Source: a bacterium (GTDB lineage Bacteria > Babelota > Babeliae > Babelales > JAUWHS01). From it: a stretch of 28,343 bases of DNA. The position numbers were made by a program, and so were the translations under genes. Under the pieces are notes generated by a model that was not told the DNA's origin, searched no databases, and worked only from the letters and a program-made list of their open reading frames with translations. Every line of letters begins with the position of its first letter. Position 1 is the first letter of the stretch. Shown here in pieces: positions 3,794 through 24,345 of this stretch. Location: contig JBDRFY010000005.1 in NCBI GenBank assembly GCA_043818275.1, positions 1-28,343 on the forward strand, given 5' to 3'.

Positions 3794-3984
3794 TGAAGCG
3801 CTCAACGGCTTAAAAGCCGTTGTATCAGCGCGGAATTCTTCGAAGCCAACCCTACTTCGCTTCCTCCTTCGTTAAAACTACGGAGGATATTCTTTGTAGC
3901 TTTAGCGAAAGAGAAAAAGCTTCGAAGGGTTCTACCCCGCCATTCATCCCAAGGCTAAAGCCTAGGGTATTCTGGCGAAGTAGA
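3794..3984 (-). mobile_element. Non-autonomous IS200/IS605-type miniature element (PATE-like: LE and RE hairpins, no genes)
   Basis: On the - strand: TTTAT, then a LE-like CGCCA-GAAT-hairpin(CCCTAGGCT TT AGCCTTGGG)-ATGAA-TGGCG. The distal RE-like hairpin CAACGGCTT/AAGCCGTTG (3803-3822) is followed by AGCGC-TTCA. GC-rich within an AT-rich intergenic region. Confidence 0.6.
3850..3929. repeat. Three nested 26-bp hairpin units
   Basis: The outer unit CCCTAC-TTCGCT^AAAGCTTC-GAAGGG is split by 54 bp: unit 3862-3887 (TCCTCC-TTCGTTAAAACTAC-GGAGGA), then TA, then inverted unit 3890-3915 (TTCTTT-GTAGCTTTAGCGAA-AGAGAA). Confidence 0.85.
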
Positions 3985-4003
3985 ATAAAACAAGGAGAAA
4001 GAG

Positions 4004-7000
4004 ATGGTCAATTTTTCGAGTCTGTCGAAGCGATTATTATTATTATTATTTGTAAGCTTAAATTTGTTTTGCGTGAAAAGAAAACGGGCAGGAATAGGAG
4101 AAGAAGGTTCAGAAAAAAAGCAAAAGAAAACGGGCTTATCTTTTTTTCAGGAACGTCTCGATGAAAACGCAAAAGAAGTTGGTTACGGCTATAAAACAGC
4201 AAATCTGATGGAATTTAAAAACGTTGTTGATAATTTAAGCGGCAAACTTCCGCAAGGTTATCAAGTTGCGGTTCCAAATTTTGTTGGAATTACAAGTGAA
4301 CAGATTCAAGATTTTTTTAATAAAAATGGGTTGGATATTCAGGCTCGTTGGAATCAGATTATTCCTTCAATGGATATTGATGACTCAATTCAATATTTAA
4401 AAGATCCCAATAATCGAAAAATTTTTATAGATAATTCTGAAAAGTTGGCAAATGAGATAGAAAATCTGGAAATTCCAGAACAGAGCCCTGATTTTCAGGC
4501 TGTTGCATCTTTTTTAAGCAAAGCTCAGCAAAATAATTGGCGGCTTATGGTTCGAAGCACAGGAAAAGAGGATACGAAAGAATTGCCAAATGCTGGGGGA
4601 AATCATAGCGAGCCAAATGTTTATCCGGATAAAGTTGCTGTAATAAACGCGATTAAAAAAGTTGTGGCATCTTATTTTAAAGAAAAATCACTGAGCCAAA
4701 GAATTGACGCGGGGGATAAAGATATTTTTGCTGATCCGTTAACACCGGTTTTAATTCAGCAAATGATTGGGGAGCCTATTGGCGAAACGCAAAATTTACA
4801 AGACATACCAGTTGGTTGCGTTGTTTACACTGGAGAAGTTGAAGGCTCAACGCCGGGAGTTATAACAATTCAGGCTGCGTTTGGACACAACGAAGGCGTT
4901 GTGAATAGCGAAGTCGCGGTGGACACGTATTACGTAAAAGACGGAAGCATCAGACCCGTTATTCAAATAAAAAATCAAAGAATTATTCCGGTTGAAAGCA
5001 ATGATGGTTATGGTTTGGAGTTGGTAAATAATCCGGAAGAAATAAAAAATGTTCAGGTGCTGAGTGATGAAGATATTTTAGTAATTAGTCAGGTTGCTCG
5101 TGCTATTCATGAATATTACAACGAGGCAATGGATATTGAATTGGTTTTTGAACCATCAACAAAAACAGTGTATCTGGTTCAGGCAAGACCATTGCAAATC
5201 AAAAATGAGGTTGAAGCAAGTTACATTTCAGACATAAAAACTATTTCTCAAGAAAATGTTTTAAAATGTTCAACGGTTAGCGCCGCTGGTGGAAGTGTTA
5301 GACACATAACAAATAAAAATCAGATAATTATTGCTTCGACATTACAACAAGCTTTGGATAAATATTTGTCTGGCGGCGTTGATCAATCTCAAGTTTTAGC
5401 TGTGATTGTTCAGGGTCAGGCGGAACCAACTTCGCACGCCGCGGCAATTTTTCGCGGCGCGGGAAAAGCAATTTTGACAAGTGATGGAATTGAAAAATTA
5501 GAAAAATGGCTGAATGAAGAAAATATAAATTTATTTGTTGACGTTCAACGTGAAATTGTTGTTAACACGAAAGATTTAGTGGATTTTGACGGTTTGATAA
5601 AAATCGGTTGGTTTAAACATCCAATTTCACAAAGAATGACAATAACTTTAGCCCCTTATGCTGAACCTGAATTTACAAAGCTTTTTTCAAAAAACATTCC
5701 ATTAAAAACACGCAAAGAATTAATAGAAACAATGAAAAATGGCAAAAATGTAATGGCAACGCGCGCATTAAAAACATTGCTTGCAAAAATTTCAAATACT
5801 TTAGAAGCCGGACAAGAAGTAGAAAATCAATCAGTGTTGCAAGCGCGAGCATTTAATGAGTTACAGCAAATTTACAATGTTGCGACAAAACTTGCGCAGG
5901 AAATGTTAAACCAAAAAATATTTGAAAAAGGGCCGCAAGATATTGAGCGTTTGTACGCAATTAATTTTCTGGAAGCGATTTTATTTCAGCCAAAAGAAAC
6001 ATCAAGATCTGTAAGTGTTTTTTCAGTCAAATCGGTTTTTGATGATTATGAAAAAAGTTATGAATTTATAAAAAAGATAAGAAAAAGAAGATTATTTTCA
6101 GAAGATGAATTAGAAAAGATAATTAATAATATAAATGAATTATCGATTATGCAATTTGGTTTTGAAGTTGCTTTAACAGATGAGTTGGAAAACAAATGGG
6201 TGAAATTTGTTTATGGTGTTTTCGTCGCTGATGAAGCAGGAAATATAAATAACCTTAAATCTGTTTTTGAAAAGATAAAAAAATTAGAAATTTTACCACT
6301 ATGGATGAATACGATTTTTGCATATGCGCAAGGAGATGTTGGAGCAATTCTTCAAGGTTTAAATAAGCAGTTAACTGAATCAGATCAATTTTTAAAAATA
6401 ATTTTGAATAAAAAAAACTGGTTGAAAAATTTTGATCCAAATAAGTTTGATGATCCAAAAAAATATGAAAAATTATTATCAAGTTTTAAAGAAAATATAT
6501 TAAAAGATTTTATTTCATATGATTTTATAAATGAAGTTAAAAATGGAACGTTGTTATCAAAAGAGGTTGCAATGGAAATTATGTCGAATATTGTAGATGC
6601 ATGGGATAAATCGATAAAAGCCTTAAAGGGAAGCGTTCAGTATGAGTTGAAAGATAAAGTTGAAAAATTCCGTGAGATGTTAAAAGTATATTTTGAATTT
6701 CTAAAAAAATGGAAAGGTTCTGTAGAATATAAAAATATATTTAACTCAATAGATCAGATTTTAAATAAACAAATTTTAGATTATGAGGCAGAACTTATAA
6801 ATTCAGTATCATTCAATGTTGAACTAACCGCAGTCGGCCGTAAGGGTGTTTTTGAAAGATATAAACCAAAAACGTTTGAAGATGTTTTTACGTTTATTCA
6901 TCAAAGCTTAATTAATATTATTTCTATAAAAACAAAAGAAATTTTTCCAGAAATTCAATTACCTGAATTGGTTAATAATGTTATTGAGATGTTGAAAAAA

Positions 7001-9136
7001 TTAGAAAGCGTAAGCTTATTTTATTATGAATTTAAAAATAATGATTTGATTGTGACATATAATAAAACTATTAGAACGCACAGCATTGTTTACCAATTGA
7101 GATATAACAAATTATCTTCCATGGTTTATTTAGAGACAAAATTTTATGGAGATGATGAAGAGGGGCGATGGGAACGGATGGCTGACTTTATAGACGTTGC
7201 CAGTGATTTAATGGAAATACCGTTAAGTAAGAATAATGCTATTAAAATGACAGAAATTTTTGAGTTTGAGATAGACAAAAATGTTAATGATGAAAAGTTG
7301 GATAAAATTTTTAAAATATTAGAACAGTGCTTAAAAATATCTTTAGATACAGATCATGTATATTTAAAGCGTGGCGTTTCGGGAAGAATATTTTTAAATA
7401 ATTTAAATAATATTTTTCAAAATAAAGAAGGAATTAATAGTTCAATAATAAAATTGTCTTTAGATAAAAATAAAATTAATTGGCTTTTGCCAGATGTTTT
7501 AAAAAACGTTGTTAAAAAAATAGATTTTTTAACAACAAAACAAGCTGATAATTTAAAAAAAATAAAAAATATGCTTTCAAATGAATCTTCTGAATATTTT
7601 ATAAAAACAATAGTTTTTATATTTAAAATTTTAAATGATCCGAGAGGTGTTTTAAGTGACTCGTTCTTCGGCCCGGAATATTATTTAGTAAATGAATCTA
7701 ATTTTTTAAATTTGTATTATAAACAGTTGACGGAGGCACAAAAATTGAAGTTGGGCGTTTATTTTTTTGGAGATGTTTTAGCCTCAATTTTTTTAGTTTT
7801 ACAATTAAATTTAGATTTAATTAATATTAACGAATTTCAATCATTGCGTTTTCAGGAGGAGCTTTTATTCATAAAATATTATTTTGAACTAGCAGATGGA
7901 AAAAAAATTAATGATATAATGGGTTTTTTTAATAAAATTTATGCTGAACAGAATGAAGAATTAGAAAAAAAAGCCTTAGTAGAATTTTATATTTATTCAA
8001 TTTCGATTTTATTCGAATCTAGTGATTCGAAAGCAAAAAATTTTGGAATGCAAATAATTAAAAAGGTTTTTGATGGTGAAAATGAAGAATTGAAAAAGGT
8101 GCCCTTAGAGCCATTTGGTGTTGTTTATGAATTACTTAAATCTAAAGTTTATGACGAGCAAGATCTTGCTATTAAAATTTTGACTAAAGTTTTTAATGAG
8201 GGTTCAGATGATCTCAAGATAAGAGTTTTGAAAATATCTGGTTTTGTTTCACATGTAGTCTCTTCAAATTCAACTGCAATAATAAATGGAATTTTAACTC
8301 TTTTACAACGAGTTTTTTCCGGCAATGACGAAAGTTTAAAAATAAAGATGTTAGGCAAAAAGTCGTATGTTTCTCCTTTTTATTTTTTAATAACATCCAA
8401 ATACAAACCTTTTGTTGATAAAGTGGAACAAATTATTGAAAATATTTTTAAATCTGGTTCAGAAGGGTTGAAAAAAGCGGCTTTAAATCCTTTGAATACA
8501 TTAATTGAATATTCAGATTCACAAAAAACAAAATTGTTAGCTTATTATGTTTTAAATGAAGTGCTTGATAATGGTTCGAATGAATTAAAAGAAGCATCTT
8601 TGAAGGCTTTTAATACCATGATAAAGAAGTTCCCTGTTTCAATTCAAGAGATTAATTTGGCAGAAAAGTTTTTAAATAACGTTTTTGTGCCAGGGTCAGA
8701 AAAAATAAAAAAAGAATTTTTAGGTAATATTGCCATTGTTATAAAATTAATTGAATCAGAAAATAAGGCTTTAAAAATCGCAAAATCCTTTTTTGTTGAT
8801 GTAATTGAGAAAGGTTCATCTGTTTTTAAAAAAGAATTATTCAAATTATATGGTCCAATTTATTATTTAACTGAAAAAAAGAGTGCGAAGGTTCTTGAAT
8901 TTGTTGTTGATATTTTGACAAATATTTTTGAAGGTGCAGATGATGAGTTGAAACATATGGTTTTGGATAGCTATTATACAATTCCAAATTTAATTAAAAC
9001 TAACAATGAATATGCTCTCTCTGCAGTAACAATGATTTTTAAAAATATTTTTTCTGGCGAAAATGAAGACCTTAAAGAAAAGGTTAAACAAGGGTTTGGC
9101 TATTACATCAAAAAACAAGGCATTAAAACCGATTGA
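4004..9136 (+). CDS. 1710-aa putative secreted dikinase-like protein: PEP synthase/PPDK ATP-grasp domain, phospho-His swivel domain and long helical/repeat region
   Basis: RBS AAGGAG. Signal-like residues 1-23. Motifs GYKTANL, VRSTGKED..NAG (about aa 183), IQQMI, FGHNEGVV, DIELVF (377), YLVQARP (393), TSHAA (His478). No recognisable PEP-binding TIM barrel follows. Confidence 0.85.
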   Translation: MVNFSSLSKRLLLLLFVSLNLFCVKRKRAGIGEEGSEKKQKKTGLSFFQERLDENAKEVGYGYKTANLMEFKNVVDNLSGKLPQGYQVAVPNFVGITSEQIQDFFNKNGLDIQARWNQIIPSMDIDDSIQYLKDPNNRKIFIDNSEKLANEIENLEIPEQSPDFQAVASFLSKAQQNNWRLMVRSTGKEDTKELPNAGGNHSEPNVYPDKVAVINAIKKVVASYFKEKSLSQRIDAGDKDIFADPLTPVLIQQMIGEPIGETQNLQDIPVGCVVYTGEVEGSTPGVITIQAAFGHNEGVVNSEVAVDTYYVKDGSIRPVIQIKNQRIIPVESNDGYGLELVNNPEEIKNVQVLSDEDILVISQVARAIHEYYNEAMDIELVFEPSTKTVYLVQARPLQIKNEVEASYISDIKTISQENVLKCSTVSAAGGSVRHITNKNQIIIASTLQQALDKYLSGGVDQSQVLAVIVQGQAEPTSHAAAIFRGAGKAILTSDGIEKLEKWLNEENINLFVDVQREIVVNTKDLVDFDGLIKIGWFKHPISQRMTITLAPYAEPEFTKLFSKNIPLKTRKELIETMKNGKNVMATRALKTLLAKISNTLEAGQEVENQSVLQARAFNELQQIYNVATKLAQEMLNQKIFEKGPQDIERLYAINFLEAILFQPKETSRSVSVFSVKSVFDDYEKSYEFIKKIRKRRLFSEDELEKIINNINELSIMQFGFEVALTDELENKWVKFVYGVFVADEAGNINNLKSVFEKIKKLEILPLWMNTIFAYAQGDVGAILQGLNKQLTESDQFLKIILNKKNWLKNFDPNKFDDPKKYEKLLSSFKENILKDFISYDFINEVKNGTLLSKEVAMEIMSNIVDAWDKSIKALKGSVQYELKDKVEKFREMLKVYFEFLKKWKGSVEYKNIFNSIDQILNKQILDYEAELINSVSFNVELTAVGRKGVFERYKPKTFEDVFTFIHQSLINIISIKTKEIFPEIQLPELVNNVIEMLKKLESVSLFYYEFKNNDLIVTYNKTIRTHSIVYQLRYNKLSSMVYLETKFYGDDEEGRWERMADFIDVASDLMEIPLSKNNAIKMTEIFEFEIDKNVNDEKLDKIFKILEQCLKISLDTDHVYLKRGVSGRIFLNNLNNIFQNKEGINSSIIKLSLDKNKINWLLPDVLKNVVKKIDFLTTKQADNLKKIKNMLSNESSEYFIKTIVFIFKILNDPRGVLSDSFFGPEYYLVNESNFLNLYYKQLTEAQKLKLGVYFFGDVLASIFLVLQLNLDLININEFQSLRFQEELLFIKYYFELADGKKINDIMGFFNKIYAEQNEELEKKALVEFYIYSISILFESSDSKAKNFGMQIIKKVFDGENEELKKVPLEPFGVVYELLKSKVYDEQDLAIKILTKVFNEGSDDLKIRVLKISGFVSHVVSSNSTAIINGILTLLQRVFSGNDESLKIKMLGKKSYVSPFYFLITSKYKPFVDKVEQIIENIFKSGSEGLKKAALNPLNTLIEYSDSQKTKLLAYYVLNEVLDNGSNELKEASLKAFNTMIKKFPVSIQEINLAEKFLNNVFVPGSEKIKKEFLGNIAIVIKLIESENKALKIAKSFFVDVIEKGSSVFKKELFKLYGPIYYLTEKKSAKVLEFVVDILTNIFEGADDELKHMVLDSYYTIPNLIKTNNEYALSAVTMIFKNIFSGENEDLKEKVKQGFGYYIKKQGIKTD
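7910..9090 (+). repeat. About 10 degenerate ~42-aa protein repeats (HEAT/ARM-like solenoid)
   Basis: Recurring cores: IYAEQNEELEKKAL, VFDGENEELKKVPL, VFNEGSDDLKIRVL, VFSGNDESLKIKML, IFKSGSEGLKKAAL, VLDNGSNELKEASL, VFVPGSEKIKKEFL, VIEKGSSVFKKELF, IFEGADDELKHMVL, IFSGENEDLKEKVK. Confidence 0.8.
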
Positions 9137-14167: not shown

Positions 14168-15348
14168 TGTTTGTAGTCCGTAATTTATAGCGGATTTTTT
14201 ATACGACTTAGCATATTTAAAATTTGTAAATAATTGAAAAGAGCGTTTGGTGAATGCCTTGGTATCAGGAGTCGATGAAGGAGGTGGAAGGCTGCCATAA
14301 GCTTCGGGGAGCTGCCAATCAAGCTTTGATCCGGAGATTTCCGAATGGGGAAACCCACCCAGGAAAATCCTGGGAACTTTTATCTGAATACATAGGGTAA
14401 AAGAGACAACGGTGTGAACTGAAACATCTAAGTAACACCAGGAAAAGAAAACGAATGTGATTCCCTAAGTAGTGGTGAGCGAAACGGGAACAGCCTAAAC
14501 TTATGCTGTGTAAGCCTGCATGCGTTGCAGTATAGGTGTTGTGGGAGTTGTTTGCTAGACATGCAGAGTCTAGATTATTTTTGTTGATTTAGTTGAATGT
14601 CTTGGAATGGGCAACCGAAGAAAGTGAAAGTCTTGTAAATTAAAAATCAATTAAAAATATTAACAAATTTCCCGAGTATCACGGAGCACGTGAAATTTCG
14701 TGAGAATCTGCCCCGACCATGGGGTAAGGCTAAATACTCCCTGATGACCGATAGTGAACAAGTACTGTGAAGGAAAGGTGAAAAGAACCCCGGGAGGGGA
14801 GTGAAATAGAATCTGAAACCAAACGTTTACAAGCTATGGAAGCGATATATACGTATGCGCGACCATGTGCCTTTTGCATAATGAGCCAACGAGTTGCTCT
14901 TACGTTGCAAGGTTAAGTTTAGAAAGAATGGAGCCGTAGCGAAAGCGAGTCTTAATAGGGCGATTAGTAACGTGAGGCAGACCCGAAACCTAGTGAGCTA
15001 TCCATGGACAGGATGAAGTCTTGGTAATTCGAGATGAAGGTCCGAACCAGTGTGGGTTGAAAACTGCTTGGATGATCTGTGGATAGGGGTGAAAGGCCAA
15101 TCAAACTAGGAAATAGCTGGTTCTCCCCGAAATATATTTAGGTATAGCCTTGTTCGATGATTTGCGGAGGTAAAGCACAGTTTAGGCTAGGGGGCATAAG
15201 CTTACCAAACCTTTACTAACTCTGAATACCGTAAATTTAGGACAGGAGTCAGACTGCGGGGGATAAGCTCCGTAGTCGAGAGGGAAACAGCCCAGACCAT
15301 TAGTTAAGGTCCTTAAATGTCCATTAAGTGGTTAAAGATGTGGAAATA

Positions 15349-15388
<40 letters not shown>

Positions 15389-16271
15389 TAAAGAAAGCGT
15401 AACAGCTCACTGGTCAAGTGTTTTTGCGCTGAAATATAAACGGGGCTTAAATGGATTACCGAAACTATGGCTGATGCTTTTAGCATCGGGGTAGGGGAGC
15501 GTTCTTTAACAGATACAAGTTTAACCGTAAGGATAGATGATGTTGGTTAAAGAAGTGAGTATGTTGGCATGAGTAACGAAAAAACAGGTGAAATTCCTGT
15601 TCGCCGTAAGCCCAAGGGTTCCGTGAGAAAGGTTTATCCACTCAGGGTTAGTCGATACCTAAGCCGAGGCCAAATGGAGTAGGCGATGGAAGGCAGGTTA
15701 AATATTCCTGCACCACTTTTTTACGTTTGAGTGATTGGGGTGACGCAGGAGGATAAGTCTACCTGGTATATGGGTTACCAGGCTAAGCAGTTAGAAGGAT
15801 TTCAGAGGCAAATCCATGAAGTCATTACTTTGAGCTGTGATGGGCATATTAATCTAAGCGAGAGATATGTTAGATTGAGTCCACGCTGACTAGAAAAACC
15901 TCTAGCGAGTAAAAGAGTGATCGTACCGTAAACCGACACAGGTGGGCGAGCTGAGTATGCTAAGGCGTTGAGATAATTCCCATTAAGGAACTCGGCAAAA
16001 TAGCCTCGTAACTTCGGGAGAAGAGGTGCCAGCGCCGTTATTTTGCAAAAAAGAAGCGGAGGCTGGTTGCAACAAAGAGGCCCAAGCGACTGTTTAACAA
16101 AAACACAGGGCCATGCAAACTCGTAAGAGGAAGTATATGGTCTGACGCCTGCCCAGTGCTGGAAGGTTAACAGGAGGTGTTAGCTCTTCGGAGCGAAGCG
16201 CTGAATCGAAGCCCCAGTAAACGGCGGCCGTAACTCTAACGGTCCTAAGGTAGCGAAATCCCTTGTCGGGT

Positions 16272-16986
16272 AAAATTCGTCGGATTAATTGCCCGAATGT
16301 CGTGGTGACACGGCATTAGTACACTGGCTAATATCGGGGAAGGCTAAGTTTTGATTTTATAATCAAGATAAGCTAATCCCGAGGGAACCTTGAATTTTTC
16401 AAGGACCTGTAACGACTGATCCGAAAGGTGAGGCGTACAACATAAGTTGACGCAATACGCCAGCTCTTGTCGAAAGGATAAAACATATGGATTTTGCCTC
16501 TTATATTACTGGTTTTGTGGATGGAGAAGGTTGTTTTTCGATTTCGTTTAATTTAAGAGCGAAGCTCAAAACCGGAATTGAAGTTAGACCAAGTTTTTCA
16601 ATTTCTCAAAATAAAAGAAGCTTAGGTGTTTTAAAAGAGATTCAGGCTTTTTTAAATTGTGGTTTTATTAGATTTTCAAAACGAGATCAAACTTATAAGT
16701 TCGAAGTTCGTTCGATAGATGATCTTGTAAGGAAGATCGTTCCACATTTTAAAAAGTTTCCTCTAAAAACATTTAAGCAAAAGGATTTTGAGAGTTTTGT
16801 GCAAGTTTGTGATTTAATTTTTAAATCTAAACATTTAAATCACGATTATTTGTGTAAAATAATTGAATGGTCTTATACAATGAATTCATCCGGAAAAAGA
16901 AAGTATTCAAAGGCAAAACTCCTAAGTGTTTTGGACAAGATGAAGAGATAGTCTGATCCCTTGTGAAAGCAAGGTAAACATAAATG
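16272..16986 (+). mobile_element. Group I intron (IA-type) at 23S position L1951, 715 nt
   Basis: Interrupts CCTTGTCGGGT^AAGTTCCGACC. The 5' exon ends in U and the intron ends in G. P1 TCGGGT/GCCCGA with U.G; P10 GTCGGA/TCCGAC; P3 CTGGC/GCCAG; P7 GACT/AGTC; two extra hairpins between P7 and P3'; P9 CCTTG/CAAGG. Confidence 0.95.
16487..16951 (+). CDS. Single-motif LAGLIDADG homing endonuclease (intron-encoded)
   Basis: YITGFVDGEGCFSI motif, FSISQ, HFKKFPLKTFKQKDF. RBS AAGGA. Lies in the P8 loop. Confidence 0.96.
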   Translation: MDFASYITGFVDGEGCFSISFNLRAKLKTGIEVRPSFSISQNKRSLGVLKEIQAFLNCGFIRFSKRDQTYKFEVRSIDDLVRKIVPHFKKFPLKTFKQKDFESFVQVCDLIFKSKHLNHDYLCKIIEWSYTMNSSGKRKYSKAKLLSVLDKMKR

Positions 16987-17460
16987 AAGTTCCGACCTGC
17001 ATGAATGGCGTAACGATTTGGGCGCTGTCTTGATGGGAAACTCAGTGAAATTGTAGTCTCGGTGAAAATGCCGAGTACCCGCAGTAGGACGGAAAGACCC
17101 TGTGCACCTTTACTATAACTTGACATTGATTTTTGGATTGGTATGTGTAGGATAGGCGGGAGACTTTGATGTTGTGGCGCTAGCTGCAGCGGAGTCGTCC
17201 TTGAAATACCGCCCTTATTGATTTGGAAATCTAACTTCTGCCCGTTATCCGGGGGAAAGACATTGTCTGGTGGGTAGTTTGACTGGGGTGGTCGCCTCCC
17301 AAAAGGTAACGGAGGCGTTCAAAGGTTCCCTCGTGACGAATAGAAATCGTCAGAAAGAGTGTAAAAGCAAAAGGGAGCTTGACTGCGAAACATACAGGTT
17401 GAGCAGGTACGAAAGTAGGATTTAGTGATCCAGTGGTTCCAAATGGAAGGGCCATTGCTA

Positions 17461-17497
<37 letters not shown>

Positions 17498-17521
17498 TCC
17501 TCTAAGAGTCCATATCGACGA

Positions 17522-17583
<62 letters not shown>

Positions 17584-17596
17584 TGGCTGTTCGCCA

Positions 17597-17631
<35 letters not shown>

Positions 17632-17681
17632 CAAGACAGTTCGGTCCTTATCCACTGTGGGCGTAGGATATTTGAGAGGAG

Positions 17682-17723
<42 letters not shown>

Positions 17724-18080
17724 ATTCCAGTTGTTTACCAAAAGCAACGCTGGGTAGCCAAGTTCGGATGAGATAACCGCTGAAAGCATCTAAGTGGGAA
17801 ACTCACCTCAAGATTAGATATCCCGTATTACTAAGCAATCAGATGAAGCTTCGGTTTCTGAAGAAAGTGTGTGATACTTTGAAGATTCCTCAAAGACTAT
17901 GAGGTTGATAGGCTGGGTGTGTAAGTGCAGTAATGTATTTAGCTAACCAGTACTAATAGATCGATAGTTTTATTTACGCTTTAAAAGTTTTTAAGAATGC
18001 GATTCGTATAAAATTTTGTTATTACGGATTATGGATTACAAACAATTTCAAGGTTTTTAGGTTTGAAAAATTTTAAAAAT

Positions 18081-18302: not shown

Positions 18303-18893
18303 ATGAAGTTCAAAAAATTATTTTTTTTAATCTTTATTTTTGCTTCAGCCTTTTTAGTTTTTAAAGAAATAGGAAAAAATTTTATGAAGAAACCTATTTT
18401 TGTCATTCAAAAACATGATGCCACAACTCTTCATTATGATTTTCGGATAGAAGTAGATGGTGTATTGAAATCGTGGGCTGTTCCAAAAGGTCCTTCATTA
18501 AATCCAAAAGATAAACGTTTAGCAATTATGACGACTGATCACAAAATGAGTTATGCAAAATTTGAAGGAGTTATTCCTGAAGGTGAATATGGTGCTGGAA
18601 CTGTTATGATTTGGGATAAAGGAACTTATAAGAATATAAAAGAAAAAGATGGTAAAATTGTACCAATTAAAAAATGTTTAAAAAACGGCAGTGTTGAAAT
18701 TTTTCTTGATGGTGAAAAATTAAAAGGTGTTTTCGCGTTGGTAAAAATGCAAAATAGCGATAAAAATTGGTTGTTGATTAAAATGAAAGATGAATATGCG
18801 GATGATAGAAAAAATATTGTAAAATCTGAATCTAAATCAGCGGTTACAAACCGTACGTTAAAAGAAATAGAAAAAAATGTTAAAACAAAATAA
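18303..18893 (+). CDS. Stand-alone LigD-type DNA 3'-phosphoesterase (PE domain)
   Basis: FVIQKHDATTLHYDFRIE, KSWAVPKGPS, DH..Y..FEG.IPEGEYGAGTVMIWDKG. An alternative start at 18384 (after AGGA) removes the hydrophobic leader. Confidence 0.92.
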   Translation: MKFKKLFFLIFIFASAFLVFKEIGKNFMKKPIFVIQKHDATTLHYDFRIEVDGVLKSWAVPKGPSLNPKDKRLAIMTTDHKMSYAKFEGVIPEGEYGAGTVMIWDKGTYKNIKEKDGKIVPIKKCLKNGSVEIFLDGEKLKGVFALVKMQNSDKNWLLIKMKDEYADDRKNIVKSESKSAVTNRTLKEIEKNVKTK

Positions 18894-19097: not shown

Positions 19098-19679
19098 ATG
19101 AAAATAATGAAGATTTTTTTTGCGATAATTTTAAGTTTAAATTTAAATGCATTAACAGAAAAAAGTAGCGATGCCTTTTCTGAATTGAAATCAAAAAATA
19201 TTGATTGTGTCTCAATTAGGTTGTCAGTCACCAAGGATGAAGAAAATTTCAATCAAGATCTTTGGTTAGAAGTTGAAAGTTTAGCAAAAAAATTTGATGT
19301 TGATTTCAAAGAATTTAAGAATGATGATGGTTTAATTGATAAAAGTGTTGATTTGATTAAAACCGTTTATGAATTAGTCAAAGATGAAAAAACTCTTCAT
19401 GGAAACTTAGATATTTCTTTATTTGCTAAGCGAGATGAGGAGGAAAAAAAGGTTATTGAATCAGATGAAATAATATTAGCATTTTTTGTTGAAAGAGATG
19501 AAAAAGATTTTGACCAAAATAAATGGGAAAAAATTGTTGAGAGTGGAGTTGAATTAGCTAGATATGGAGAAAGCTCAGAAGAGTTTAATGAAGAATTCCT
19601 TTCAAAAATAAAAGAATTAATTCAAGCTTTTTATGATTTTGGAAAATATAACAATGATGTTTTAGAAATTAAATCATAA
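19098..19679 (+). CDS. Exported acidic hypothetical protein with an internal duplication
   Basis: RBS AAGGAG; signal peptide ending SLNLNA; two similar halves (VTKDEENFNQDLW / VERDEKDFDQNKW). Confidence 0.85.
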   Translation: MKIMKIFFAIILSLNLNALTEKSSDAFSELKSKNIDCVSIRLSVTKDEENFNQDLWLEVESLAKKFDVDFKEFKNDDGLIDKSVDLIKTVYELVKDEKTLHGNLDISLFAKRDEEEKKVIESDEIILAFFVERDEKDFDQNKWEKIVESGVELARYGESSEEFNEEFLSKIKELIQAFYDFGKYNNDVLEIKS

Positions 19680-19703
19680 ATTTAGAAGAATATTTAAATT
19701 TAT

Positions 19704-19733
19704 AAGCCGCAAGTTTTATCTTGCGGCTTTTTT
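19704..19733 (+). terminator. Rho-independent terminator
   Basis: AAGCCGCAAG-TTTTAT-CTTGCGGCTT followed by a T-tract. Confidence 0.85.
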
Positions 19734-19847
19734 GTTTTAAGGTGTTTAGGTTTGGAATTTAAAAAAACTTGAAGTTTAAATGTATTTTATGTTTTCTTAA
19801 ACAATCATATAAGGGATAAATTTAGTTCTAAACCAAAAGGGGAGGCG

Positions 19848-20228
19848 ATGTTTAAATCAATTTTGGTTGCGACTCTTTTTATAAATCTTTTTTGTATCAC
19901 AAATGTTTTTGCAGATGAAGAAGATCTTATCGAAAAAAAAGAAGTTACTTCTACTCGAATAATTAACATAAAAAATGTTTGTGGTTGTTCTGCTGCTATT
20001 GTTGTTATTGCTGCTGGGGTTACCATTACAGCAGCTGTAGTTGTTGGCGGTGTTATCTTGGCTGTCCGTTCTTTTGATATTCCAGATATAGATCTTTCTA
20101 ATTTTCATAATTTTGATTGGTCTGAATTTTGGTCTGAATTGTGGCCTGATAGGGATTGGCATTTTCCAGATTTCGATGATTGGATAAATGATATATTTGG
20201 ATGGTTATTTAAAAGGAAGGGATTATGA
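19848..20228 (+). CDS. Hypothetical membrane/exported protein with a Trp/Asp/Phe-rich tail
   Basis: RBS GGAGG; signal peptide ending VFA; long hydrophobic segment; ATGA overlap with the next gene. Confidence 0.8.
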   Translation: MFKSILVATLFINLFCITNVFADEEDLIEKKEVTSTRIINIKNVCGCSAAIVVIAAGVTITAAVVVGGVILAVRSFDIPDIDLSNFHNFDWSEFWSELWPDRDWHFPDFDDWINDIFGWLFKRKGL

Positions 20229-20890
20229 AAATAAAGATTTTTTTGTTTTATATTATGATCATTTCTTTAGGTTTTTGTTCTTTTTACATGATTTTATCAT
20301 TTTTTCCATTGAGATATTTACCTGGAAAAAATATTTTTTATATAAAAGATACATTTATAAAACCGAGAGTTTTATTTCATGCGTCAAAAAATAAAAATAT
20401 AAAAGTTTTAGAACCAAAACAAATTCATGGAAGATCTAAAGAAGAGGGTAAATTAGTTTTTGCTACTACACATATTGGGTTTGCGTCAATTTTCATGTCC
20501 AGACATGAAGATAGTTGGCAAAAAAGTGGAAGTTTTGATAATGGTCCTTTTTATTTTATTTGTAGCGACAAAGAAAGATTTCTTAAAGAGGATATAGGAG
20601 GAGCTATTTATGTTTTGTCTTCGAAAGATTTTTATGCTGATTTGACTAAAGGTATTCGGATAAATGAATGGGTTTGTCGACATGTTGTAAAACCATTAAC
20701 AAAATTAGAATTTGATTCAACTTTAAATGCTATGATGTCTTTTGGCGTACAGGTTTACTTTGTAGATAAAGAAGCATTTAATGAGATAAAAACGGTAAAA
20801 GATTATGGTCGTAAAATTATAATGAATCTAAAATCTGAAAATGAAAAAAAGGGTATAAATCCGATGCCTCTTTTTGATTACAATAAATGA
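20225..20890 (+). CDS. Hypothetical protein with N-terminal TM/signal; possible Arr-like ADP-ribosyltransferase fold
   Basis: LFHAS...LEP, VFAT....ASIF, AIYVL and NEW motifs occur in the order of ART-fold strands. Confidence 0.6.
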   Translation: MKIKIFLFYIMIISLGFCSFYMILSFFPLRYLPGKNIFYIKDTFIKPRVLFHASKNKNIKVLEPKQIHGRSKEEGKLVFATTHIGFASIFMSRHEDSWQKSGSFDNGPFYFICSDKERFLKEDIGGAIYVLSSKDFYADLTKGIRINEWVCRHVVKPLTKLEFDSTLNAMMSFGVQVYFVDKEAFNEIKTVKDYGRKIIMNLKSENEKKGINPMPLFDYNK

Positions 20891-20927
20891 AAATTTTTTG
20901 AATTTACACAAAAATATTTATAAATCC

Positions 20928-21431
20928 TTAATTTTCAATATCTAGAAATTTTCCAGTTTCAATATCAAGCCATTTAATAAAAGATGAATTTAATTCTATA
21001 AATAAAATTTCTATTTTAATTAGTTGATGTGTTTTTTCTTCTATTTTAAATTCTAGGGTTTCAATTAAAGTTATTTGAGTTTTTAAATTTTCTTTTCTGA
21101 ATGGAGTTAATTCTTTTCCTTTCGGATTGTTTTCTATTATTTCCATCCTTTCTATCAAATTATATTTGTTTTCTTTTTCTACTATTTCAATATTTACAAT
21201 TAAATATTTACTATCTTGGGTCCATAATATTTCTTTTAAGTTATAATCTTTATATTCAAAATTTAATATTTTTATTGGTTTTTCTAATTCTTTAATTTGC
21301 ACCATTAAAAATTTTGTATTATCGTCAAAATATGCTGTTTTTGTTTTATCCGGTGATTCAACTTGAATTATTCCGAACAGATTTGATGTTAAGATTAAGC
21401 AGAAAATAGATAGAAAAATTTTAAGATTCAT
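20928..21431 (-). CDS. Exported hypothetical protein with WD40/PD40-like blade motifs
   Basis: RBS GGAGGAGG; signal peptide; ESPDKTKTAYF and ILWTQDSKYLIV. Confidence 0.7.
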   Translation of the reverse strand: MNLKIFLSIFCLILTSNLFGIIQVESPDKTKTAYFDDNTKFLMVQIKELEKPIKILNFEYKDYNLKEILWTQDSKYLIVNIEIVEKENKYNLIERMEIIENNPKGKELTPFRKENLKTQITLIETLEFKIEEKTHQLIKIEILFIELNSSFIKWLDIETGKFLDIEN

Positions 21432-21444
21432 TCCTCCTCCTTTT

Positions 21445-22653
21445 TTATCTAGGATAAGAATTTCTGGTTTTTAATTTATTTGCAATGTCGCTTATATCTG
21501 AAGCGTTTAATAATTGAACCAGTTTTGTATTAATCGCATTGTACAATTCTCTATTGTTATACTGATTTTGTTCATCAACATACCAATTATTTTTTTGTAA
21601 AATTTGCGTTATATCTTTAGTTACTCCATTTAGTAATGTTGGATCGTTAATAATTGCTTGTTGATAATTGTAAAAATTATCACGCAGATATTGATTGTCT
21701 CTTACGTAATAGGTTATGAGATATTGTTTGATCCATTCATTTATATACTTGTCAAAAAGTTTATTTGTAATCGTTGTGTAAATTGCTCTGTTGCTTGTTC
21801 TTGTCATATTATCCGCAAAGTCAAAATAACCTTGTCTGAAATTTGAAAATCCGGCAACATTTGGCATTGGAAAATAGTAATCAGCATTCATTGATTCAAA
21901 TAAAGAATCGACAATCGTTTGAATATTTGTATCAGTTGGCTTATTAAAAAATTTTGAAATATCATTTGATTGAAAAAAACTCAAGATAAATATTTTATAG
22001 TATCTGGAATTTTTTGATTGTTGTGCTAAGCCGATTTGTGCTCCAAGACCATCAACTTTTGCACCTAAGTGCATAATTGCAGTTAATTTTCCAAGGTCAT
22101 AACAAATTTGTTGTATATTTATTAGCTGTGAACTTACTCTTGGATAATTATTTACTATTTTTTCTACTTCATCATAACCTATAAATTCACCCTTTATTTC
22201 TGATTCAGAAATATCATTTTTATTATATGTTCTGTATCTGAGATACATTTGGGTTAAATAACCGCTTACAGATTCTTTTAATGGGTAAAGTCGCTCCATA
22301 AAAAGAAGGCATGTTTCACTTACAATTTCTAATCTATTTGGTTTTGGAAATGAAGCGCGATTTAAAAATGTTGTATCTGTGTTGTATCGTGTAAGTGAAT
22401 CTTGTAATTTTTTTAAAATTGTAAATTCATTCGTATATTTTCCGCACAATGTTTTGCTCAATGTTCCTTTAACAGCTAATTCATTTGCAGTACTTCCCCA
22501 AACTTCTCTTTCAGGTCCTTTACCTAATAAAATTGGATTTGAATATTGATCTGGATATTTATAAATCAGAGCTGCTTTAATAGCACTTGGAATGATTGAA
22601 TTTAAATTGTTTAAAAAAATTATAGAAATAAAAAGTATTGATATTTTTTTCAT
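21445..22653 (-). CDS. Exported protein-kinase-like protein, probably a pseudokinase
   Basis: RBS AAGGAG; signal peptide; LLGKGPEREVW, LAVK, NEFTIL, LFMERL, AIMHLGAKVDG, IFILSFFQ, YYFPMP. Confidence 0.7.
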   Translation of the reverse strand: MKKISILFISIIFLNNLNSIIPSAIKAALIYKYPDQYSNPILLGKGPEREVWGSTANELAVKGTLSKTLCGKYTNEFTILKKLQDSLTRYNTDTTFLNRASFPKPNRLEIVSETCLLFMERLYPLKESVSGYLTQMYLRYRTYNKNDISESEIKGEFIGYDEVEKIVNNYPRVSSQLINIQQICYDLGKLTAIMHLGAKVDGLGAQIGLAQQSKNSRYYKIFILSFFQSNDISKFFNKPTDTNIQTIVDSLFESMNADYYFPMPNVAGFSNFRQGYFDFADNMTRTSNRAIYTTITNKLFDKYINEWIKQYLITYYVRDNQYLRDNFYNYQQAIINDPTLLNGVTKDITQILQKNNWYVDEQNQYNNRELYNAINTKLVQLLNASDISDIANKLKTRNSYPR

Positions 22654-22767: not shown

Positions 22768-24273
22768 TTACTTAAATATATCTTGCAAATATTTTGGTAA
22801 AATTGCTGATGCGAAATGAATTTCAGGTGAGTAATATTTCAGATTTTGTAGATTTAATAGTTTGAATTTTTCTTTTATTTCTTTTTCGGTTACAGAACTT
22901 AAATCAAATTTGGCGGCCATCATAAAACTAAATTCACCACCTTGATAAGTTGGAACAACGGCTTTATGAATTTTTACAGATTCAAATACGCTTTTAACTC
23001 TTTTGTGGATTGTTGCGATTTCTTTTGATTGATATTCAAAGGATCCACTTTGAATTGAAATGACACCATTTTTAGTTAATGCCTTTTTTACATCTTGATA
23101 AAAGGCTTCTGTTATTAATTCTTCAGCTGGACCATCAGGATCTGATAAATCCATTATTATTACATCAAAATAGTTTAAATGATTTTTAACAACTTTTTTT
23201 CCATCATCAATTATAAGATTTGTTTTTTTATTTTCAAAGGCGCCTTCAGATAAAGTAGGTATGTGCTTTTTACAAAGTTCAACAACTTCAGCATCAATTT
23301 CTACAATATATACTTCTTCTATTTCATGTTTTAAAACTTCTCTTAACGCACCTCCATCACCTCCACCTATAATTAAAACTTTTTTAGGGTTTGGATGATA
23401 AAACATTGGAGTATGTATCATCATTTCATGATAAATAAAATTATCATTTTCTGTTGTTTGAATAATTCCATCAAGAACAAGCATTTTACCAAAGAAATTT
23501 GTATCATAAATTTCGATATTTTGGAATTCAGATTTAGCAGAATATAATTTTTCTTTTGTTTTTATTCCGATTTTAAAATTGGGCTCACTATTTGGAATGT
23601 TTCTTTCAAAGAACCAGGATGAATCGTTATAATAGTCAATTCCTATTGTAAAAGATTCAGGCGTTTCGATTTCTTTTTTATTTGAAGTTAAATCAATTAA
23701 TACTTGAGTTAAATCAACGAGTCCTGTTTCTTTATTGGCTTTAAATGTTTTTTGTTCATTAACAACTGTCGTTAATTTAGTATTTGTTTTTAAGGGCTCT
23801 TTTTTATATCCTCTCTTAACTTCTTGAATTTCAACGATTTCTGGTTCAAGGATATCTTTTAAATATTCAATAGCTTTTTGTGGTTTAGCTTTTGGTCCAC
23901 AAGTAAACGCATCAACAGCAATATAACCATCTTCTTCAAGCCATGTATGAATTGTTATATGAGATTCTTCTAAAATAACAGCACTTGTTATTCCGGGAGG
24001 AAGTATTTCGTTTGGTGCTTCAAATTTATGTGAAATAATTTCAAGGGGACTAGCATCAGCTTTTTTTGCTGCTTCGGTTAAAAGCTTTTCTACATCTAAA
24101 TCTTTTAATTTTTCAGGTTCTACACCCCAAAATTCTGCCAAAATATGAAGTCCTGCATATTGTTCACCGTTTTCATCTGAAACCCAATGAATTGAATGTT
24201 CTATATCTTTAGCATTTAATGAAATAGTAACTATTATAAAAAGACAAAATATGATTTGTTTAAAGCTTCTCAT
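22768..24273 (-). CDS. speD-speE: S-adenosylmethionine decarboxylase-spermidine synthase fusion with a signal-peptide-like N-terminus
   Basis: SpeD: GLHILAEFWG, LEESHITIHTW (E-S autocleavage), DAFTCG. SpeE: LVLDGIIQ, YHEM, LIIGGGDGG, VEID, DLSDP. ATG at 24273 follows GGAG; the ORF track starts at TTG 24285. Confidence 0.95.
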   Translation of the reverse strand: MRSFKQIIFCLFIIVTISLNAKDIEHSIHWVSDENGEQYAGLHILAEFWGVEPEKLKDLDVEKLLTEAAKKADASPLEIISHKFEAPNEILPPGITSAVILEESHITIHTWLEEDGYIAVDAFTCGPKAKPQKAIEYLKDILEPEIVEIQEVKRGYKKEPLKTNTKLTTVVNEQKTFKANKETGLVDLTQVLIDLTSNKKEIETPESFTIGIDYYNDSSWFFERNIPNSEPNFKIGIKTKEKLYSAKSEFQNIEIYDTNFFGKMLVLDGIIQTTENDNFIYHEMMIHTPMFYHPNPKKVLIIGGGDGGALREVLKHEIEEVYIVEIDAEVVELCKKHIPTLSEGAFENKKTNLIIDDGKKVVKNHLNYFDVIIMDLSDPDGPAEELITEAFYQDVKKALTKNGVISIQSGSFEYQSKEIATIHKRVKSVFESVKIHKAVVPTYQGGEFSFMMAAKFDLSSVTEKEIKEKFKLLNLQNLKYYSPEIHFASAILPKYLQDIFK

Positions 24274-24345
24274 TAACCACTCCAAAAGATTATTATGAAA
24301 ATAAAACAGATTTAATTTTGTATTGTACTTATAAGATCAGAGAAA

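Follow-up and report, generated by a model that had tools for sequence, protein, structure and literature searches.

Architecture of the gene and its conserved domains

Within a 28,343-nucleotide stretch of contig JBDRFY010000005.1 (assembly GCA_043818275.1), here called the window, lies a gene for a putative exported dikinase, in which a signal-like N-terminus precedes an ATP-grasp domain of the type found in phosphoenolpyruvate (PEP) synthase (PEPS) and rifampin phosphotransferase (RPH), a phospho-histidine swivel domain, a conserved domain of its own and a repeat tail (Table 1). The genome (1.33 Mb, ~30% G+C) belongs to the Babelota, described as a phylum of protist parasites (PMC6561590), and named relatives of the protein are assigned to Dependentiae, Babeliales or TM6; it holds six matches to TLC nucleotide transporters and 41 to ankyrin repeats. 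A second member of the family, divided over contig ends (G000:C10:9282-11753 continuing in G000:C72:1-2133, with a 141-nt overlap), ends in the same 41-amino-acid (aa) tail repeats. These repeats, for which the window protein gave no Pfam match, were otherwise matched only by one other stored protein (the second member is also stored as P0133). The gene converges on tilS, with which it overlaps by 14 nt, and a dispersed repeat lies directly upstream (window 3801-3995; 34 blastn hits on 19 contigs, depth 9-15 at sampled positions).

Table 1. Parts of the window gene, in window coordinates
Feature	Position	Strand	Basis or remark
Whole gene, open reading frame (ORF) of 1710 aa	4004..9136	+	stand-alone
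Ribosome-binding site AAGGAG, supporting the ATG at 4004	3992..3997	+	sequence
Sec-type signal-peptide-like segment, aa 1-23	4004..4072	+	heuristic prediction
Basic stretch KRKR...KKQKK, aa 25-42	4076..4129	+	member-specific
PEPS/RPH-type ATP-grasp, aa ~62-400	4187..5203	+	K64, R184, S202, E379, Q393, R395 conserved
Phospho-histidine swivel domain, aa ~405-545	5216..5638	+	PEP-utilizers mobile-domain Pfam match in relative P0128
His478 of TSHAA, predicted phosphate carrier	5435..5437	+	residue conservation
Conserved helical region, aa 560-985 (D868, K872, E959, D960, H966, Q967), predicted half of acceptor site	5681..6958	+	
Conserved alpha/beta subdomain, aa 986-1110 (N1020, H1026, S1027, R1055)	6959..7333	+	
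Variable tail, 9 helical repeats of ~41 aa	8021..9103	+	HEAT/ARM-like by spacing

A preliminary description of the gene had recognised a PEPS/PPDK-type ATP-binding domain and an intact phospho-histidine motif, and both stand. The ATP-grasp matches Pfam PPDK_N (E 7e-35) and, by Foldseek, PDB 2ols (E 6e-13), with its nucleotide-binding and catalytic residues in place, and His478 is kept in 120 of 120 aligned sequences, its equivalent being present in 48 of 49 chlamydial members. The same description held that no pyruvate/PEP barrel follows the His domain, which agrees with the absence of a Pfam match to PF02896 in the window protein and with a structural model made up of a long helical run and then one sheet, without beta/alpha alternation. 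The best family-model matches are PEP synthase models, at whole-protein scores far under the cut-offs (95 bits against 598; 83.7 against 739.75), and the genome encodes a separate, ordinary full-length PEP synthase, contig C79 carrying its only PF02896 match. As had also been anticipated, relatives are mis-annotated: their source labels include 'phosphoenolpyruvate synthase/pyruvate phosphate dikinase', besides 'PEP/pyruvate-binding domain-containing protein' and 'hypothetical protein'.

Homology to relatives continues past the His domain to aa ~1110 in nearly all cases and then collapses. The earlier picture of about 1200 aa of helical sequence ending in repeats was right about the repeats, but the conserved domain stops near aa 1110, includes an alpha/beta subdomain and has invariant residues of its own. 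Across 227 full-length copies of aa 780-1110, D868, K872 and H966 never vary (227/227), H1026 is kept in 226, E959 and Q967 in 225 each and R1055 in 210. In the model of aa 560-1110, which is confident, D868 and K872 sit one turn apart on one helix and E959, H966 and Q967 on another; H1026 is found at a beta hairpin, and the helix that follows carries R1055. From these seven residues we infer a putative second site. Structure searches found no clear fold match for this domain. Its alpha/beta subdomain weakly resembles the folds of YjbR/MotA and of type III chaperones, and no RPH-type or rifampin-binding-domain match was among the matches listed; neither were the central-domain entries of glucan, water dikinase (GWD), 9HA9 and 9QVI, in searches of a library whose content is uncertain and in which residues 560-780 were not searched alone. 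A profile of the acceptor domain only collected 984 clusters at 50% identity, and the matches with their N-terminus present carry the same ATP-grasp and His module.

Export-type N-termini, distribution and a candidate phosphatase partner

Signal-like starts were called by a hydrophobicity heuristic rather than by SignalP or EffectiveT3. By this measure the signal peptide originally proposed for the window protein is recovered, and homologues share it: 85 of 120 family sequences have a signal-like N-terminus, compared with 157 of 2420 internal windows. The lineages differ, with such a start at 39 of 42 Babelota loci (37 of 40 minus two duplicates) versus 9 of 46 chlamydial loci, three partial loci being skipped. 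Chlamydial N-termini are instead rich in Ser/Pro/Thr, at 7.5 per 25 residues (n=42); the corresponding figures are 4.4 for 119 neighbouring ORFs and 4.3 for internal sequence. Such a bias has been described in effectors of type III systems (PMC2669295). Three Babelota genomes have the gene in two pieces, broken at two different points inside the helical region (L036:6443-10188, L037:4472-8184 and L038:6300-9994), and P0228 looks like a further split half. The first half ends in normal sequence and the acceptor half opens with its own signal-like segment, so that both halves bear signal-like starts, which is hard to explain unless both must leave the cytoplasm. As far as the heuristic can tell, the export signal fits the secretion route of the lineage, as would be expected of an effector; the window genome encodes three secretins. 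The basic stretch KRKR...KKQKK resembles a bipartite nuclear localisation signal (NLS) and, for the window member only, suggests a possible nuclear destination; monopartite NLS-like stretches occur in 7 of 136 signal-bearing family proteins and in 7 of 302 background proteins.

Family matches were found in 45 of 261 Babelota genomes (two of them weak, E above 1e-4), with up to 5 per genome, and in 58 of 400 scored genomes of the chlamydial phylum, counts that include related genomes and are not independent. One Chlamydiales genome has 11 matches, some of which are pieces. Six of 38 genomes of a Myxococcota class match; all six measure 1.6-2.0 Mb, and among the 15 genomes of that class that reach 4.5 Mb there is no match. 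In the class of an Oligoflexia genome the count is 2 of 201. The family is concentrated in bacteria living inside eukaryotic cells and is strongly, though not strictly, linked to reduced genomes, four carriers being large. The homologue survey that the preliminary description had proposed finds host-dependent lineages dominant, with a chlamydial extension that was not foreseen, and the patchy, multi-copy occurrence in these lineages is again of the effector type, as are the eukaryote-type domains of relatives. In a quick tree the chlamydial sequences form two groups, one of them sister to a Babelota group with a support of 100. The Planctomycetes-titled member on L007 and the Babeliaceae-titled member on L012 are nearly identical (branch lengths 0.04 and 0.1), which suggests mis-binning.

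No recurring metabolic, envelope or transport neighbours of family genes were found. Pfam searches of the relatives detected HEAT, ankyrin and DUF4116 repeats and one USP deubiquitinase, and the only recurring enzyme partner is a DSP phosphatase. This domain, with an intact HCxxGxxRTGT loop, is fused N- or C-terminally in 9 of 232 family proteins, a tenth motif match lacking TGT being left out of the count. Of the 23 strong PTP-SAK hits in Babelota family f17, 19 fall no more than 10 kb from a family match, and they come from 7 of the 9 genomes; given the genome sizes, one would expect 0.67. A neighbouring stand-alone phosphatase is closest to human DUSP23 (E 2e-32); the substrates of archaeal relatives of this enzyme are given as unknown in PMC13577060. 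At two loci (L033:3622-5715 and L040:17631-19913) a signal-bearing DSP phosphatase is joined to the alpha/beta subdomain only, which lacks the conserved His, and adjoins a full family gene; these fusions fit a shared target, or could be a deletion remnant.

Elsewhere in the window, a 23S rRNA match (14228-17977) spans 3750 nt, compared with a model of 2925 positions, and encloses an ORF for a LAGLIDADG endonuclease (16487-16951, E 3e-27), an insertion consistent with a group I intron. It is followed by a stand-alone LigD 3'-phosphoesterase domain whose N-terminal segment is hydrophobic (18303-18893, + strand), by five ORFs that have signal-like starts and gave no Pfam match over the cut-off (19098-22653), and by a 505-aa ORF, hydrophobic at its N-terminus, in which S-adenosylmethionine decarboxylase is fused to spermidine synthase (22768-24285, - strand). 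One of the five, a 402-aa ORF (21445-22653, - strand), by eye resembles a divergent kinase N-lobe, and a PDB sequence search with it gave no match.

Candidate function and its alternatives

In light of these data, we consider it probable that the window gene encodes an exported effector that passes the beta-phosphate of ATP, via His478, to a molecule inside the eukaryotic host cell. By analogy with PEPS and with the chemistry described for RPH (PMC4844700), HpeHI (PMC12167813) and GWD (PMC13553574), the ATP-grasp would, after export, cleave ATP to AMP and inorganic phosphate (Pi) and load the beta-phosphate onto His478. The His domain would then swing to the conserved second site, where a host acceptor would receive the phosphate. 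The variable tail likely positions the enzyme, at a location or on a partner. Judging from N-termini and lifestyle, Babelota members would leave by Sec export followed by an outer-membrane step and chlamydial members by type III secretion. Given delivery to the host, a protein on the one hand and a small molecule, lipid head group or nucleotide on the other are both real candidates, neither reaching an even chance and the two about evenly matched, with a host protein at most slightly ahead, and a glucan or nucleic acid would be an unlikely acceptor. The repeat tails and the DUSP23-like partner argue for a protein; precedent and the invariance of the site argue for a small molecule or lipid. 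One invariant acceptor site also suggests a single conserved eukaryotic target, and only tentatively do we put forward the fuller proposal that dikinase-derived effectors common to Babelota and chlamydiae phosphorylate a conserved eukaryotic protein, with the DUSP23-like phosphatase as a co-secreted eraser in one lineage.

Several points weigh against a host-directed effector. By the same heuristic, 302 of 933 ORFs of the window genome are signal-like, signal peptides are reported on 44% of coding sequences in Chromulinavorax (PMC6561590), and a Sec signal reaches only the periplasm. The bipartite NLS-like stretch occurs in just 2 of the 136 signal-bearing proteins and is not a family trait. 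Four carriers (G263, G264, G268 and G904) have genomes of 4.0-5.6 Mb and a lifestyle that is not established. Phosphatase clustering is confined to one family of related genomes; among 401 chlamydial genomes, a strong PTP-SAK hit occurs in 1; in the window genome the two DSP matches are weak and lie on other contigs, with none near the window gene; and effector genes can cluster without a common target. The swivel dikinases described in PMC4844700, PMC12167813 and PMC13553574 act on small molecules or glucan, not on proteins. Finally, we infer, rather than observe, that the conserved residues form a single pocket within reach of His478.

Of the alternatives, the one that survives best keeps host delivery and makes the enzyme a kinase for a small metabolite, nucleotide, inositol phosphate or lipid head group, which we regard, delivery and substrate taken jointly, as possible though on the unlikely side. 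The substrates of enzymes with a DSP fold also include lipids, RNA and glucans. The near-invariance of the acceptor site over 227 sequences fits such a substrate; RPH, HpeHI, CreHI and PpsAB are small-molecule dikinases (PMC4844700, PMC12167813), and in its combination of acidic residues with Lys, Gln and Arg the site is similar to the one that binds phosphate in RPH (E667, K670, Q337, R666; PMC4844700). Against it, the HEAT, ankyrin and 41-aa repeat tails and the USP fusion point to protein partners, and the linked phosphatase is closest to a protein phosphatase, DUSP23.

It is improbable that the protein acts in the periplasm or envelope of the bacterium itself, or in the lumen of its vacuole, where host ATP bound for the nucleotide transporters would serve to phosphorylate a polymer of the surface or a nutrient being taken up. 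Sec signals do deliver to the periplasm, which host ATP, given the TLC transporters in the genome, probably crosses. Most chlamydial members, however, lack Sec signals and have type III-like N-termini, and the eukaryote-type fusions, the lack of recurring envelope or transport neighbours and the patchy, multi-copy distribution all speak for another place of action.

Very unlikely, in our view, is a GWD-like glucan dikinase that mobilises host storage glucan together with the DSP phosphatase, even though GWD, the known dikinase that acts on a polymer, has a helical acceptor domain, and glucan kinases work in a cycle with phosphatases of glucan (PMC13553574): no carbohydrate-binding module (CBM) gave a Pfam match among 139 scanned sequences (some redundant), the domain order differs, the phosphatase is DUSP23-like, and the acceptor domain includes a beta sheet where the GWD central domain is described as having 20 helices. 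We give slightly less credit still to a protein that mainly wastes ATP as a toxin (ATP to AMP and 2 Pi) or serves as a catalytically idle scaffold; StGWD1 in vitro does hydrolyse most ATP to AMP without transfer (PMC13553574), but an invariant second site is kept together with the ATP-grasp across two phyla, and an energy parasite relies on its host for ATP. A cytoplasmic PEP synthase that has diverged, or some other metabolic enzyme, is scarcely credible: PEP synthase models are its best family matches, but at scores far below threshold, and the barrel is missing, the genome has a full PEPS elsewhere and the N-termini are signal-like.

Relation to known dikinases and effectors

PEP synthase/pyruvate,water dikinase (PDB 2ols, 8a8e; PRK06464, TIGR01418) and PPDK have the same order of ATP-grasp, His swivel and acceptor domain as the window protein, share its TSH motif and give its best sequence matches, but their barrel is replaced by a helical and alpha/beta domain, and the export-type N-terminus and repeat tail set the window protein apart. 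RPH has its His domain at the C-terminus, behind the substrate domain (PMC4844700), an order taken as the mark of its kin as well (PigC/RedH, HpeHI, CreHI, PpsAB), whereas here the His domain is central. R666 and E667 of RPH are reported to be needed for the second transfer only (PMC4844700), and D868-x3-K872 is only chemically analogous to that phosphate site. The split copies differ from RPH kin in breaking inside the helical region and in having signal-like starts on both halves. In StGWD1, as described, a His domain pivots to bring the beta-phosphate to a large acceptor domain made mainly of helices (PMC13553574), much as is proposed here. StGWD1 differs in its reverse order (CBM, central, His, ATP-grasp), its CBM45 modules and its all-helical central domain, and it is a eukaryotic plastid enzyme; the ATP-grasp of the window protein is N-terminal.

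In Legionella, adjacent writer and eraser genes encode effectors and their counter-acting partners. The f17 arrangement resembles these pairs, a predicted secreted writer lying beside or fused to a predicted secreted DUSP23-like eraser, although it is limited to one lineage. To our knowledge, known effector kinases have ePK-like or PI-kinase folds and transfer the gamma-phosphate. If the proposed function is correct, the family would represent a new way for intracellular bacteria to manipulate their hosts and, with a protein acceptor, a third structural basis for phosphorylating proteins during host manipulation, possibly with a new phosphate mark; transfer of the beta-phosphate would escape gamma-32P kinase assays. 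Its 984 clusters, in two unrelated phyla of intracellular bacteria, stand under a PEP-synthase-like label, and the work offers a defined enzyme and exact residues for the study of protist-host remodelling by Babelota and environmental chlamydiae. Swivel-histidine dikinases have known roles in metabolism, in resistance to drugs, in the catabolism of aromatic compounds and in the turnover of starch, and none was found as a host-directed effector in the literature searched, most subscription journals being outside its reach. What the window gene appears to join, in a predicted role that we did not find in print, is this known swivel-histidine engine and a previously undescribed acceptor domain.
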